From a virus (lineage: Duplodnaviria > Caudoviricetes), in IMG/VR virus record IMGVR_UViG_3300036982_000033, positions 1-28,639 of that record: a DNA stretch of 28,639 nucleotides, one strand, 5' to 3'. The position numbers and the translations under genes were made by a program. Under the pieces are notes generated by a model. The model saw nothing but the letters and a program-made list of their open reading frames with translations, was not told the DNA's origin and ran no database searches. Of this stretch, positions 4,338 through 11,706 are shown piece after piece. Positions within the stretch are counted from its first letter, which is position 1; each line of letters starts with the position of its first letter.

Positions 4338-4756
4338 TTTATTTGTTGTTTTACTTTTTGCCAGTATTTTAATGTGCTTTTCTTTTTGTGTCCATTGCAC
4401 CCACCATTCCAATTGCGGGCAATCTTTTGATCTGTTGCATTCTTTGTGTGTGATCTTATCACATTGAACATTTCAATGCTTTTTGCCTTACTCCAACGAT
4501 CTTTTAACGTGTATTTATCTTCACCAAGTAACCTATTTACCTCTCTAACCATGATAGGGCGTATTTGCAAGCAGCCTACTGCATCTTCTTTGGAATTGTA
4601 GGCAAGTGTATCAAAATTAGATTCAACGGCCATCACGGCGTTTAAAAGTGTATCTATTGGAATAGGTTCTATAATTGGCTTATCGTACCACATAGATTGT
4701 GTACTAATAAATGCCAAAAGTGATAATGATAAGATTGTTTGTTTCTTATTTAACAT
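4334..4756 (-). CDS. Lytic transglycosylase (SLT/lysozyme-like) with N-terminal signal or anchor
   Basis: AVMAVES (catalytic Glu), AVGCLQI and ARNWNGG motifs; hydrophobic N-terminus. Confidence 0.85.
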   Translation of the reverse strand: MLNKKQTILSLSLLAFISTQSMWYDKPIIEPIPIDTLLNAVMAVESNFDTLAYNSKEDAVGCLQIRPIMVREVNRLLGEDKYTLKDRWSKAKSIEMFNVIRSHTKNATDQKIARNWNGGCNGHKKKSTLKYWQKVKQQIK

Positions 4757-4760
4757 GTGG

Positions 4761-4821
4761 CAAAAGTAATGTACAAACTATATGCAAAGTAATAGTTTAA
4801 CTATTTATAATCAATCAAAAT
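4761..4821 (-). promoter_or_regulatory. Leftward promoter with upstream 19-bp box
   Basis: -7 TACTTTTG at 4761-4768, TGCATATAGTTT at 4775-4786, and box ATTTATAATCAATCAAAAT at 4803-4821. Confidence 0.8.
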
Positions 4822-4854
4822 AGTGTACATTTAAAATACATCTATTAATATGCT

Positions 4855-4862
4855 TAAATTTG
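4855..4862 (+). promoter_or_regulatory. -7 element of the rightward promoter
   Basis: TAAATTTG lies 4 nt before the ATG at 4867. Confidence 0.55.
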
Positions 4863-4866
4863 CAGC

Positions 4867-5166
4867 ATGATTAAAAACAATATACTATTGATTGGCTTCA
4901 TCGTTGGCATCCTGCTGATGGTAATTATAGTCAACCTCACCCAGTGCCGCAAACCTGCACCACCGGAACCTGATCCAATTGAACAAATAGATTCTATTGA
5001 ATTACGAATTGACACACTACAAATAACTAAAATTAAAACCATAACCAAATTAAAAACCAAAATACAATATGAAACAAGTATTATTTCTCGCACTCCTGAC
5101 AGTGGGCAAATTATCATTCGCGCAAACCTCCGTGATTCAATCGACTTCTATTTGCATACAAGATAG
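4867..5166 (+). CDS. Membrane-anchored or lipoprotein-like protein, putative spanin component
   Basis: N-terminal hydrophobic helix, then LTQC and a Pro-rich linker; overlaps the next ORF by 98 bp. Confidence 0.6.
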   Translation: MIKNNILLIGFIVGILLMVIIVNLTQCRKPAPPEPDPIEQIDSIELRIDTLQITKIKTITKLKTKIQYETSIISRTPDSGQIIIRANLRDSIDFYLHTR

Positions 5167-7857: not shown

Positions 7858-8267
7858 CCTTTGATCTTTCAAATAATTACGATGTGAACAAGGCCCAAAT
7901 TAAGTTTGAGGCCTTGATTGCATCAGGTAAAAAGATTGAATTGAAAGAAATCAAACAAAAACGATCGTTATCACAGAACAAATACTTTCACGTTGTGGTG
8001 ACCTTGTACGCCATTGCATACGGAAGTACACTTGAAGAAGCTAAAACCGATTTAAAGCGTGACTATGGCCTTATCTATGAAAAGAAAGGCAAGAAGTACT
8101 TAATGAGTAGCGCAGACCTTGATAGCCTTATTATGACGCAATTTATAGACTACATAAGAACAAAGGCCGCAAAAGAACTAAATACATACATCCCAACATC
8201 GGATGAGTATCTATTGAATCACTTTGCAATTGACAAAGAAATAAACACACACAAAGAATACCTATGA
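7854..8267 (+). CDS. NinB/Orf-like recombination protein
   Basis: KRSLSQNKYFH and SSADLD..MTQFIDYI motifs. Confidence 0.7.
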   Translation: MTFDLSNNYDVNKAQIKFEALIASGKKIELKEIKQKRSLSQNKYFHVVVTLYAIAYGSTLEEAKTDLKRDYGLIYEKKGKKYLMSSADLDSLIMTQFIDYIRTKAAKELNTYIPTSDEYLLNHFAIDKEINTHKEYL

Positions 8268-8806
8268 CAAATAAACAATTAAGAAAAGAAATAAACGATA
8301 ATAAACAATTGCTCACTGCAATGGGCATATACATAAATGAACTTGAAGACCGACTAAAAAAGAACGGTTATATGAGCGAACGAATAATGCAACTTAGAAC
8401 AAAACACAACCTGCAAAATTCCGATAATCAATATATGCAAATAGCTTATAGTTATGAAACAAACTTTGACTTACTTATGTCAGTTATTTCATATTACTAC
8501 AAAGAAAGCCCCGAACAAATAAAAAGTCATTGCAGAAAGCAAAGGTTTGTAATACCCCGCCACATGTTTAGTTACCTTGTTAAGCAATACATGCCTGATA
8601 TGGTACTGACTGACATTGGTTCCTATTTAGGTGGGCGTGATCATTCCAGTGTGATACATGGGCAGCAAACTATTTCCAAATTCTTAGAGTTTGACAAAAA
8701 GACTAAACGTGACTATGCCGCTATCGTTCAAATGCTAAATGATATTGCAGCAAATAACAATGACGCAAGCTATTTGCAAACACCCGCTTATTTGGAATCA
8801 GTCTAA
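8264..8806 (+). CDS. DnaA C-terminal (domain IV) HTH protein
   Basis: RKQRFVIPRHMFSYL...LTDIGSYLGGRDHSSVIHG matches the DnaA domain IV signature; no AAA domain. Confidence 0.85.
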   Translation: MTNKQLRKEINDNKQLLTAMGIYINELEDRLKKNGYMSERIMQLRTKHNLQNSDNQYMQIAYSYETNFDLLMSVISYYYKESPEQIKSHCRKQRFVIPRHMFSYLVKQYMPDMVLTDIGSYLGGRDHSSVIHGQQTISKFLEFDKKTKRDYAAIVQMLNDIAANNNDASYLQTPAYLESV

Positions 8807-8838
8807 TGACGCTGCATATAGTTTTAATATTACTTTTG
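8790..8838 (+). promoter_or_regulatory. Promoter with upstream 19-bp box
   Basis: Box ATTTGGAATCAGTCTAATG at 8790-8808, TGCATATAGTTT at 8813-8824, and -7 TACTTTTG at 8831-8838. Confidence 0.8.
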
Positions 8839-8842
8839 AACT

Positions 8843-9013
8843 ATGAAAGAAATGAAAGAATTAATTTTTAGAGTAGGCACAATGTTTATGCCTTTGGGCT
8901 TTATGGTTTCACTTGTTGACGAACCAGTATACGCAAGCATTACGTTTTTGATTGGGTTTATATCCCTGCTTGAACTTGTTAGCATAAAAAAGAATAAAAA
9001 AATTAAACTTTAA
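8843..9013 (+). CDS. Small membrane protein (56 aa), missing from the ORF track
   Basis: MKEMKELIFRVGTMFMPLGFMVSLVDEPVYASITFLIGFISLLELVSIKKNKKIKL: two hydrophobic segments and a basic tail; own promoter and terminator. Confidence 0.75.
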   Translation: MKEMKELIFRVGTMFMPLGFMVSLVDEPVYASITFLIGFISLLELVSIKKNKKIKL

Positions 9014-9041
9014 GGTATCTTTAAAATTATTGTTGTTTGTC

Positions 9042-9077
9042 AAGCGCGTTGCCGGTTAATCTGGTAGCGCGTTTTTT
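9042..9077 (+). terminator. Intrinsic terminator
   Basis: GCGCGTTGCCGG-TTAAT-CTGGTAGCGCGT stem (G-U pairs work on the + strand) followed by a T run. Confidence 0.9.
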
Positions 9078-9152
9078 GTTTAATAGTGCGGTAAAATGCT
9101 TTATTGATACTTATTTATTCGGTATTATACGTATTTGCAACCTAAAGTGTAG

Positions 9153-9398
9153 TATAAGGTACTTTTATATGCTTTAATGTAGGATATGTGACACATTAAG
9201 GGTATTAATTCGGATAATGTCGGAATTATGCAACTTAATTTTGCATAATAAACATTGCCGATATATTGTGCATTTATATCGGTTTGGATTTTTACAAAAA
9301 AGGTTTACTTATTGGTTTGGATTTATACTCAGGGTATAAAAAATGTCCAGTTTTTAAACTAATAAACTGCATGAATTTTTCCGAAAAACTAATGCAGT
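9153..9398. repeat. Array of different adjacent palindromes
   Basis: About 8 distinct inverted repeats plus one direct-repeat pair tiled through a non-coding gap. Confidence 0.8.
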
Positions 9399-9403
9399 CT
9401 ACC

Positions 9404-10516
9404 TTAAAATAAATGTGTAAACCTTGCTATTTGGCCGTGTTCTTTTGAATGCAAAAATCCTTCAATTGCTTTTGGTGCATGTTGGTACCCATTCCGATGA
9501 TGCCAAGAGTCCGTGCCACTTGGTGACCTTAGACTTTCAACTGTCACACCTTGATAATCCTTTGAGGTCTTATGATGAACATGGTGGGTGTAAACGTACC
9601 GGTGTTTGGTATTTCCCCAATCATTTGATTCCACTGCCATTAACAATGGAAGATCCTGAGCCTTTGCCCCATCGCCGTGTGTGGTTCCAATTAATGACGT
9701 GCCATAAGCAAAATACTTTCGGTGTGCAATTGAGCAATCAAATGTTATATTCTTGTTATTCCTGAACCACGAACTTATAACATCAGCCAAAAAGAAACCA
9801 CTTTGATAATCGTGATTTGAAGGATTAAAAGTAAAATGTACATCAGCCACTGGAATAAGCATTTCAAGTACATCCACATACACTTGTTTAGCTTTTAAGA
9901 AATTAGAATACCACATTCCATCAGTATCTTGTGGTGTGCCTGATGTGGTTTGTCTTTTGGGATTATCAATGTGCAAAATATCGTTGCCACCGATGAATAG
10001 TATCTTATCTATGTTATACCCTTGTGACTTATCAATGATGCCTTGTACCCCCTCTAAAACGCGTCTCACGGCAATGTTTGTATCATAGTCTTCACCCGTT
10101 TCAAATGCTTCACATAATTTGCCAATGTGAACATCAGCAGGATCAATAACTAATAAGTGACCTTCTTTTGATTTGTTCCTTTTTATTGTAGGGTATTTAG
10201 GGGAATAGCTTTTTAACTCTGCAATTAATTTGTCTCTGATTTGATCGTATGAAACCGCACCTTCGTAATCGGGATTAGTAAAGAATAGTGAAGTGTCTTT
10301 TGTTTTTACCCAGCCGTGTTTGACGTCTTTGGTTGCAACCCCTGCATCTTCGCAATACTGATCTACTTTTGATTTGTAAAGTGAATAATGGTCTTTTACG
10401 GTTAGCGGTGATTTGCCAACAATTGCACTGATCCTATCATAATAAGCATTTTTATACTCTTCTGTTTGTCGGGGATGTTCTGCAAAGATTTTGAATGTTA
10501 TGTCGTATTGGCTCAT
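9404..10516 (-). CDS. Calcineurin-like metallophosphoesterase with N-terminal extension
   Basis: ADVHIG, GGNDILH, SNHD, THGD and HHVHH metal-binding motifs. Confidence 0.85.
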   Translation of the reverse strand: MSQYDITFKIFAEHPRQTEEYKNAYYDRISAIVGKSPLTVKDHYSLYKSKVDQYCEDAGVATKDVKHGWVKTKDTSLFFTNPDYEGAVSYDQIRDKLIAELKSYSPKYPTIKRNKSKEGHLLVIDPADVHIGKLCEAFETGEDYDTNIAVRRVLEGVQGIIDKSQGYNIDKILFIGGNDILHIDNPKRQTTSGTPQDTDGMWYSNFLKAKQVYVDVLEMLIPVADVHFTFNPSNHDYQSGFFLADVISSWFRNNKNITFDCSIAHRKYFAYGTSLIGTTHGDGAKAQDLPLLMAVESNDWGNTKHRYVYTHHVHHKTSKDYQGVTVESLRSPSGTDSWHHRNGYQHAPKAIEGFLHSKEHGQIARFTHLF

Positions 10517-11330: not shown

Positions 11331-11706
11331 TTACCTCAGGAATAACGCAAAATTCACTATCAGGATTCACCTCACAATAAGACTTGAAATAAGCCGCCTC
11401 ATAGCCTCCAAATATATGAAGTTGTGTGGTAGGCTTTGGGAACACTTCAAATGGCTTAAACGATGGCAAAGGGGTTCTAAACCATAATATGTCCACCGCC
11501 CAAGTTGTGGCAAGGTCTGAGCATACTTTATCACCTTCTTCGTTTAGTTCGTATGCCTTGCATATATGCCCTAACTCAACTACTGCAACATCTTTGTAAT
11601 TGTAGATTTCGTTACCTTCTAAATCGGTTGTTTTTACTTGTATCTTAGTTTGGAATTTAGACCATTCTGCTTGGTCTGTAAACTCATATTTGGAATATTT
11701 GTTCAT
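11311..11706 (-). CDS. Hypothetical protein following the fiber (possible fiber chaperone)
   Basis: Position directly after the fiber gene; function inferred from synteny only. Confidence 0.6.
   Translation of the reverse strand: MNKYSKYEFTDQAEWSKFQTKIQVKTTDLEGNEIYNYKDVAVVELGHICKAYELNEEGDKVCSDLATTWAVDILWFRTPLPSFKPFEVFPKPTTQLHIFGGYEAAYFKSYCEVNPDSEFCVIPEVNDVVGS

Follow-up and report, generated by a model that had tools for sequence, protein, structure and literature searches.

Some AbiE-like systems stop phages. To our knowledge, the answers of phages to toxin-antitoxin defence are either proteins or antitoxin-like RNAs.

Two of the systems closest to the locus described here are controlled by their own antitoxins on operator DNA. 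AbiEi has been described to repress its own operon via inverted repeats in the promoter (PMC3985639, PMC13064643), and HipB as well as the HipA-HipB complex have been reported to bind operator repeats, with HipA dimerising in the operator complexes and loss of the antitoxin relieving repression (PMC7029023). Lactococcal AbiE defence is reported to require both genes, AbiEi included (bioRxiv 10.64898/2026.01.19.700257), which would make AbiEi a protein worth capturing.

The locus belongs to a stretch of 28,639 nucleotides (the window), which represents most of the genome of a small tailed phage, the contig possibly being incomplete. A leftward arm encodes terminase, portal, capsid, tail tube, tape measure and endolysin, a rightward arm carries NinG and a DnaA-type helix-turn-helix gene, and no integrase was found among the 37 open reading frames (ORFs) scanned in the window. 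We infer a Bacteroidota host for this phage. The sequencing runs containing the region are aquatic or sediment metagenomes, and a contig of run X1, possibly the source of this DNA, is identical across positions 8700–9700. The palindromes lie in the gap where the two arms converge, with the following features at its sides:

8264–8806, + strand: phage gene with a DnaA C-terminal helix-turn-helix domain (Pfam PF08299, E = 2.5e-17), near the end of the rightward arm
8843–9013, + strand: final small gene of the rightward arm, 56 amino acids (aa), no family, retained in relatives
about 9042–9078, + strand: intrinsic terminator of the rightward arm and left boundary of the array, the sole terminator-like site in 8950–9500
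9404–10516, − strand: gene that ends the leftward arm (structure and lysis) and forms the right boundary of the array

The DnaA C-terminal DNA-binding domain stands alone in the protein encoded at 8264–8806, and the letters of the terminator stem change on both sides in relatives. The 370-aa product of the gene 9404–10516 matched no Pfam, NCBIfam or PADLOC family; the 3′ part of the gene shares 72.9% identity with Flavobacterium phage genes labelled DNA repair exonuclease or hypothetical, and in a search among named phages this flanking gene was the only match. Situated after the lysis genes, it is very frequent in aquatic phages, with about 1500 stretches estimated. A search of the window with 95 antitoxin queries revealed no homologue save one 28-residue match at 11542–11622, which was taken as chance.

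The first-pass annotation had described the gap as non-coding, enclosed by converging arms and packed with palindromes, and each of these points was borne out. The genes 8843–9013(+) and 9404–10516(−) both end there, no gene starts behind the array, and the longest stop-to-stop frame inside it does not exceed 59 codons. All the inverted repeats and the direct repeat listed originally are present. With arms of at least 6 bases, spacers of at most 14 bases and 2000 dinucleotide shuffles, eight perfect inverted repeats were counted in 9081–9400 versus 2.9 ± 1.7 in shuffled sequence (P = 0.013). Inverted repeats cover 49% of these bases compared to 15% after shuffling, a coverage reached by none of the 2000 shuffles, and 9081–9400 is the highest-scoring 320-base window of the contig. 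As originally noted, a CRISPR-like repeat unit is absent, the direct repeats being short and in two copies only. The list of palindromes itself needed revision, because it missed the most widespread unit after A (C, 9242–9272) and because two of its entries, 9225–9249 and 9258–9282, are present but better read as by-products of overlapping neighbour units. A second, weaker cluster of inverted repeats (five with arms of at least 6 bases per 320 bases) is found at 4521–5040, where the arms diverge.

The units of the gap are as follows, the repeats being given without strand and the identities to host loci as fractions:

9081–9106: unit M, similar to the palindrome that precedes a 72-aa XRE antitoxin gene and a HipA N-terminal gene, 18/24 identical to L591
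9108–9141: unit L, conserved in 17/27 relatives, its right part resembling with low confidence sites before 67–81-aa XRE and HipA N-terminal genes
9142–9167: unit K, second site of the family of M, containing the palindrome first listed at 9153–9169; rank 3, 8.2 bits, 17/24 to L591
9162–9187: unit O, chiefly a half-site of an operator-like palindrome that precedes 67–81-aa XRE and HipA N-terminal genes
9174–9199: unit J1, look-alike of the repeated palindrome before 108–118-aa XRE antitoxin and full-length HipA genes; rank 2, 10.9 bits, 19/24 to L602
9206–9228: unit D, best match the promoter palindrome of a 213-aa AbiEi and AbiEii operon, 17/23 to L510
9214–9239: unit J2, the better of the two J-family sites, which overlaps both D and C and is absent from the first list, 20/26 to L594
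9236–9243, + strand: minus-7 box, the only Bacteroidota-type one in the gap, in the left flank of C as in many host copies
9242–9272: unit C, 31-base palindrome, 25/31 to the best hosts
9251–9276: unit N, site of a 93–96-aa XRE and HipA family over the spacer and right arm of C, 13/18
9281–9324: unit F, direct repeat with 33-base spacing, in 2/27 relatives
9322–9340: unit B, palindrome first read as CsoR-like, in 7/27 relatives
9344–9369: unit E, almost a copy of the palindrome at the operator position of a 241-aa AbiEi and AbiEii operon, 27/30 identical to four host loci, spacer included
9368–9396: unit A, look-alike of the palindrome before a 189–197-aa AbiEi and AbiEii operon, 24/29 identical to host locus L376

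In their sequence, ten of these units resemble promoter palindromes of Bacteroidota toxin-antitoxin operons. The matched operon types comprise three AbiE (AbiEi-AbiEii) subfamilies, one winged-helix and nucleotidyltransferase pair and four HipBA-like subfamilies. The ten assigned units overlap and span 202 of the 320 bases, with B, F and most of L outside them. Given these overlaps, simultaneous occupancy of all units would be impossible, and several of the phage copies appear as imperfect or half-sites.

A gap of this kind might also yield a transcript in the form of a structured non-coding RNA or of consecutive hairpins acting as terminators or antitoxin-like RNA. Read-through from the late arm would cover the gap, and its predicted folding is somewhat better than that of shuffled sequences (z = −1.72 on the + strand and −2.35 on the − strand). 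Against this stands the outcome that no RNA family or conserved peptide accounts for the region when Rfam, the reading frames and the relatives are considered; six Rfam matches in the gap all failed to reach the gathering score. The mismatches in the stems show no G-U bias, with 7 G-T versus 7 A-C for A (67 sites) and 10 versus 19 for C (30 sites). In addition, some relatives have the spacer of C in inverted orientation; like the missing G-U bias, this is what symmetric double-stranded sites would show. Across unrelated phages and hosts the arms do not covary but retain their sequence, and units that overlap would be mutually exclusive as hairpins. We therefore regard an RNA as very improbable.

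The relation of the units to host promoters was analysed with palindrome models that contain no phage input. From searches with the AbiEii and HipA N-terminal domain families, 95 distinct upstream regions were obtained after loci without a clear first gene or too close to a contig edge had been dropped; a search with AbiEi_2, positive in one of 101 genomes, was left out of the models. The regions were clustered by antitoxin, one model was built for each cluster of at least two, and the 28.6-kb window was scanned. For six of the 14 toxin-antitoxin models the best site of the window is inside the array, with 0.25 expected from column-permuted models. Five distinct sites were ranked first, namely E (by two models), J2, M, N and O. 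The P value of about 7e-8 is nominal, as the families were picked after pattern hits and the clustering thresholds were hand-tuned. The remaining eight models do not rank the array first, and two of the six successes are marginal. Among seven single-promoter models, the one from L510 ranks unit D first and the other six do not rank the array first. None of six control models from S24/LexA-like/UmuD and Fic promoters has its best site in the array, which ranks 10th to 212th with them. Alignment of AbiE upstream regions to the array reached a score of at least 16 for 7 of 74 regions versus none in four shuffles and the reversed array. The units thus match promoters of Bacteroidota defence-type operons. 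The initial idea of a collection of host operators is narrowed to toxin-antitoxin operons (AbiE and HipBA) by all units that could be assigned, with C also before other defence genes; no assigned unit indicates a general regulator.

For the AbiE-type units, the host copies of A, D and E are located just upstream of the minus-7 box of abiEi-abiEii operons, where an AbiEi operator would lie; Pfam and PADLOC served to assign the operons of A and E, and a genome search with PF08843 those of D. Unit E is closest to its hosts. Its host-only model ranks it first with 25.7 bits versus −6.0 at the best site outside the array, compared to a leave-one-out mean of 42.5 bits for the hosts themselves; the identities to host loci are 24/29 for A and 17/23 for D. 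The last four bases of unit E are replaced by unit A. The pattern of E was found in 20 of 151 Flavobacteriales genomes versus 7 for the control, and of these 20 loci 12 are inside genes, five before AbiEi and three elsewhere. In the five AbiEi loci the site lies about 30 bases before the start of AbiEi (a later start codon being used in one), a minus-7 box follows 6–8 bases after the site, and the host operons linked to E belong to PADLOC families PDLC02226 and PDLC02292. An E-like palindrome at L320:1500-1530 is flanked by a WYL-domain gene and an XRE gene and does not precede an AbiE operon.

Unit A is the most widespread unit in phages. In a metagenome scan, 10 of 92 matches to its pattern precede AbiEi-AbiEii operons (PADLOC PDLC02234, E about 1e-85), most of the others looking like phage contigs, and an A-type site was also recovered in L516 without using the phage motif. 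The 301 Bacteroidota genomes gave 12 matches versus one for the control, ten of them in ORFs and none before a toxin-antitoxin operon, and the host context of A is consequently taken from the metagenome scan only. The pattern of unit D, placed first by the single-site model from L510, showed no excess over the control in genomes. Upstream of AbiE operons in Flavobacteriales-type genomes (L323, L324, L325, L343, L347 and L490), a common non-coding repeat was observed which looks like a cassette-boundary repeat.

For the HipBA-type units, the search with the HipA N-terminal domain revealed spaced repeated palindromes upstream of the XRE antitoxin and HipA gene in the host loci, the arrangement of HipB operators. 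With four HipBA subfamily models the array comes out first, in two cases by a narrow margin. Unit J2 is ranked first with 18.5 versus 7.7 bits outside the array, and the model of M (from L577, L586 and L591) ranks it first in the window with 10.5 versus 9.3 bits outside. The marginal cases are O, with 6.1 versus 5.3 bits and 14/14 positions identical to L587 over 9163–9176, and N, with 7.4 versus 7.3 bits. Unit N would explain the palindrome originally listed at 9258–9282 and the phage-specific arm of C. Unit L is 16/20 identical to L589 and is not called by the model. Phased cooperative HipB operators were not recognised in the phage, where no family has more than two sites; J1 and J2 are spaced by 40 bases and M and K by 61 bases. 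Pattern searches for these units returned little: the K/M pattern matched in one of 151 genomes at a site that is no toxin-antitoxin promoter, and the J pattern at two mismatches was too loose, with matches in 81 of 81 genomes and an equal control. Of 15 J sites examined, 12 are in ORFs and two before HipBA-like operons.

Unit C, built as 12-7-12 with outer repeats, has 49 exact genome matches, 42 of them in Bacteroidota. As a gene for a 332–340-aa winged-helix protein follows shortly in only 16 of the 42 Bacteroidota loci (broken in one), the binder of C is uncertain. In 12 of these 16 a nucleotidyltransferase-like gene comes next. Other defence genes follow in 14 loci, namely AlbA_2-HATPase (6), SoFic (5), DUF3800 (2) and HsdS (1), and 12 loci have no near gene start. 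The first protein has a central winged helix and a weak match to an AbiEi_2 protein (E = 0.011). In the second, the nucleotidyltransferase motifs are present, the match to PF08843 is weak (best E = 0.001, in two of nine), the Atlas neighbours are named AbiEii-like, and no solved relative was found. The pair of winged-helix (332–340 aa) and nucleotidyltransferase-like (about 255 aa) genes at L171:2047-3817 and 11 similar loci belongs to no confident Pfam, NCBIfam or PADLOC family and is a candidate for an undescribed toxin-antitoxin subfamily.

The host loci of C (L157-L204) have very different defence-type genes separated by the palindrome with its outer repeats, usually directly 3′ of a gene for a 250–263-aa metallophosphoesterase. 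L176 and L195 share C letter by letter, including the spacer, with unrelated genes on both sides. Possible roles of unit C in hosts are a mobile promoter-operator and a site of gene shuffling. An integron attC or tyrosine-recombinase cassette site was considered for C and rejected, as only one site per genome was found in five of five genomes at up to two mismatches. In three viral contigs of about 97 kb (L084, L101 and L135), C and E overlap and, judged by eye, start at the 3′ end of an apparent tRNA-Arg gene.

Units B and F carry no operon assignment. The 33-base spacing of F recurs in the unrelated lineage L211. The right end of B is identical in 14/14 positions (9331–9344) to L573, a half-site before a 68–82-aa XRE gene, with a different spacing, and the model of the 68–82-aa XRE family does not call it. 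Unit B had been likened to a CsoR/RcnR operator. Compared with what we take to be the consensus of such operators, this reading found no support: relatives show a different, shorter-spaced palindrome, and PF02583 was found in none of five genomes.

Unit D had been taken for an SOS-type box, which was not upheld either. It shares the short core and spacing of the Bacteroidetes SOS box GGA-N5-TCC, for which dyad changes are reported to abolish binding in EMSAs (PMC8565304), and some relatives have a perfect core; unlike that box, D of the window has a mismatch in one dyad half and flanks that match an AbiE promoter. A LexA-like model, built from another order and from promoters other than those of the Flavobacteriaceae regulator itself, ranks the array 65th. 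No intact SOS box was seen before ten dinB/umuC loci of four genomes, and none of the SOS promoters examined matched the array. The extended SOS-box pattern occurs in 15 of 151 genomes versus 12 for the control, with 13 of the 15 listed sites in ORFs. Given the intact cores in some relatives, a double role of D as an SOS-type and an AbiE site is possible.

The commonest gapped 8-mer of the host promoters, present in 63 of 95, presumably represents the Bacteroidota minus-7 box. At a distance of up to 30 bases, such a box accompanies all 9 host A sites (a set without L406 and without L401, which lies at a contig edge) and 12 of the 14 host E sites, versus 4 of 39 non-coding phage A lineages and none of 8 phage E lineages. 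The phage copies of A and E are thus mostly devoid of promoter boxes, which argues against units acting in cis, where bound antitoxins would repress, block or time phage transcription and thereby read the defence content of the host. The box that is present, 9236–9243, faces the end of the late arm and is overlapped by J2 and C, in favour of a cis-acting role; no minus-33 box was seen upstream of it. In other phages, a gene starts within 80 bases of an anchor unit in 18 of 68 lineages, and in 37 of 68 the array lies between genes of the same direction. In the window, both flanking genes end at the array and the terminator closes the rightward arm before it. The inverted spacer of C in some relatives also speaks against this role, and a host signal as patchy as the E-type site, which precedes AbiEi in 5 of 151 genomes, would be a poor general one. 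We consider action in cis improbable as a general explanation; regulation of this kind is possible mainly in the 18 lineages with a nearby gene start.

The distribution of the units among phages is modular. Of 80 loci with the flanking protein, the seven closest (91–94% identity) hold subsets of the same units and the distant ones none. The 27 non-redundant related arrays display 19 presence patterns (two scoring no unit), and contigs from other runs skip 9173–9205, 9275–9364 or 9133–9240, the first of these segments removing the whole of J1 in runs X2 and X3. Scans with the units yielded 75 viral loci for C and 78 for A, which form 48 lineages by flank similarity. With one representative per lineage, E was found in 7, D in 8 of the 48, B in 4 and J in 3, with 0–0.15 expected (0.15 for D); A and C were the scan anchors, and their lineage counts are true by construction. 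The prediction of the first annotation that related phages would carry the same units in shuffled order and number agrees with the varying numbers among relatives and the other orders and overlaps in unrelated lineages. Locus L108, from a contig of 93,957 bases, shares 245 bases (9085–9329) at 84% and nothing else in the 2.4 kb compared. As the array is shared but not its flanks, this suggests transfer of the whole cassette between phages. Across 68 phage lineages, the density of host-model sites of at least 12 bits is 5.6-fold higher up to 250 bases from an A or C unit (30 sites in 33 kb) than at greater distances (21 sites in 129 kb), and the sites near these anchors include families absent from this window. 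Longer arrays with extra palindromes were seen in the unrelated phages L106, L225, L227, L232, L221, L364 and L365, some of the extra palindromes matching the AbiE promoter families L329, L495 and L504 and others having no assignment.

The free loss of units among relatives would also be expected of neutral relics, i.e. promoter pieces from host defence islands or recombination and cassette-junction sites. Unit C in particular fits such an origin by its 12-7-12 layout, its outer repeats, its differing host neighbours and its copies beside tRNA ends and integrases. Relics would hardly explain why palindromes alone were retained and not promoter boxes or gene fragments, why units from different systems are interleaved base by base, or why the same units recur in unrelated lineages far beyond chance; C itself, found once per genome in five of five genomes (up to two mismatches), forms no cassette array. 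A neutral origin is accordingly judged quite unlikely.

We propose, largely in line with the first annotation, that the array is a DNA decoy which would bind the antitoxin repressors of whichever matched operons the cell carries, to the benefit of the phage, and we assign this reading a probability of roughly 0.6. Its first part is considerably firmer: the host palindromes are very probably antitoxin operators, and the phage copies can be expected with the same confidence to bind the antitoxins. Replicating phage DNA would supply operator copies that outnumber the single host operator. Titration would lift autorepression, the supply of antitoxin would continue and the toxin would stay neutralised, with antitoxin or antitoxin-toxin complexes parked on phage DNA. 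One compact cassette might thus cover many patchily distributed putative defence systems without any phage protein. Two observations run counter to this proposal: AbiEi is described as stable, and AbiE of S. agalactiae is described as giving no defence against 32 coliphages in E. coli (both bioRxiv 10.64898/2026.01.19.700257).

The same binding could have the opposite effect. Units that capture antitoxins might switch on or raise the toxins (AbiEii, HipA) and thereby slow host translation or arm the cell against competing phages. The sequence evidence for the putative binding fits this possibility equally well, and activation of the toxin by viral DNA sequestering AbiEi has been speculated on (bioRxiv 10.64898/2026.01.19.700257). 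Selection for activating at least eight systems is harder to explain for toxins that act on a process the phage itself depends on. AbiE- and HipA-type toxins block translation, which a small tailed phage needs. Toxin activation is hence unlikely, if slightly less so than action in cis, and a decoy that keeps the toxins neutralised is preferred.

The array is real and conserved, and it is explained as to what its units appear to copy; its putative function is strongly suggested. There is a somewhat better than even chance that it exemplifies a widespread protein-free counter-defence, in which mobile modular cassettes of antitoxin operators are traded among unrelated aquatic Bacteroidota phages and disarm many AbiE- and HipBA-type systems. 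If this is true, the list of units would be a readout of the toxin-antitoxin systems truly acting against phages in nature, and units without a match would point to undiscovered defence regulators. How AbiE and HipBA sense phages, and whether HipBA defends at all, are general questions on which the array bears. As it names exact sites and partner families, single units of 25–30 bases are testable, whichever the direction of the effect.

Among described systems, the abiE operator of S. agalactiae (PMC3985639) is a long inverted repeat over the abiEi-abiEii promoter, and A, D and E are placed likewise in their hosts. Sequences and subfamilies differ, and the phage carries these sites without the operon, stripped of their promoters and mixed with sites of other systems. 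The hipBA operators described for E. coli and Caulobacter (PMC7029023) are spaced repeated palindromes before an XRE antitoxin and HipA, to which J1, J2, K, M, N and O are similar. Hosts have several phased copies, as opposed to one or two per family in the phage, which are not in phase and overlap other units. With sites so few, unphased and overlapping, higher-order HipB complexes may not form on the phage DNA. The pseudo-ToxI repeats of phage PhiTE (PMC3475682) are likewise a non-coding phage copy of a host toxin-antitoxin element, whose copy-number variation is described to allow escape from abortive infection. They consist of one repeated RNA unit acting on one toxin; here, the units are many and different, and their predicted action is that of double-stranded DNA, with antitoxin repressors as the targets. 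Synthetic DNA sponges and decoy sites (PMC7686491, PMC8599769) show that extra binding sites titrate a transcription factor and alter expression of its targets; the examples given in the available text of these sources are engineered or chromosomal, and none is a natural phage cassette against defence operons. A search of the full-text literature within its reach, which excludes most subscription papers, retrieved no description of toxin-antitoxin operators arrayed in a natural phage. Operator DNA in the form of a cassette would represent a third chemistry, besides proteins and RNAs, by which phages answer toxin-antitoxin defence.
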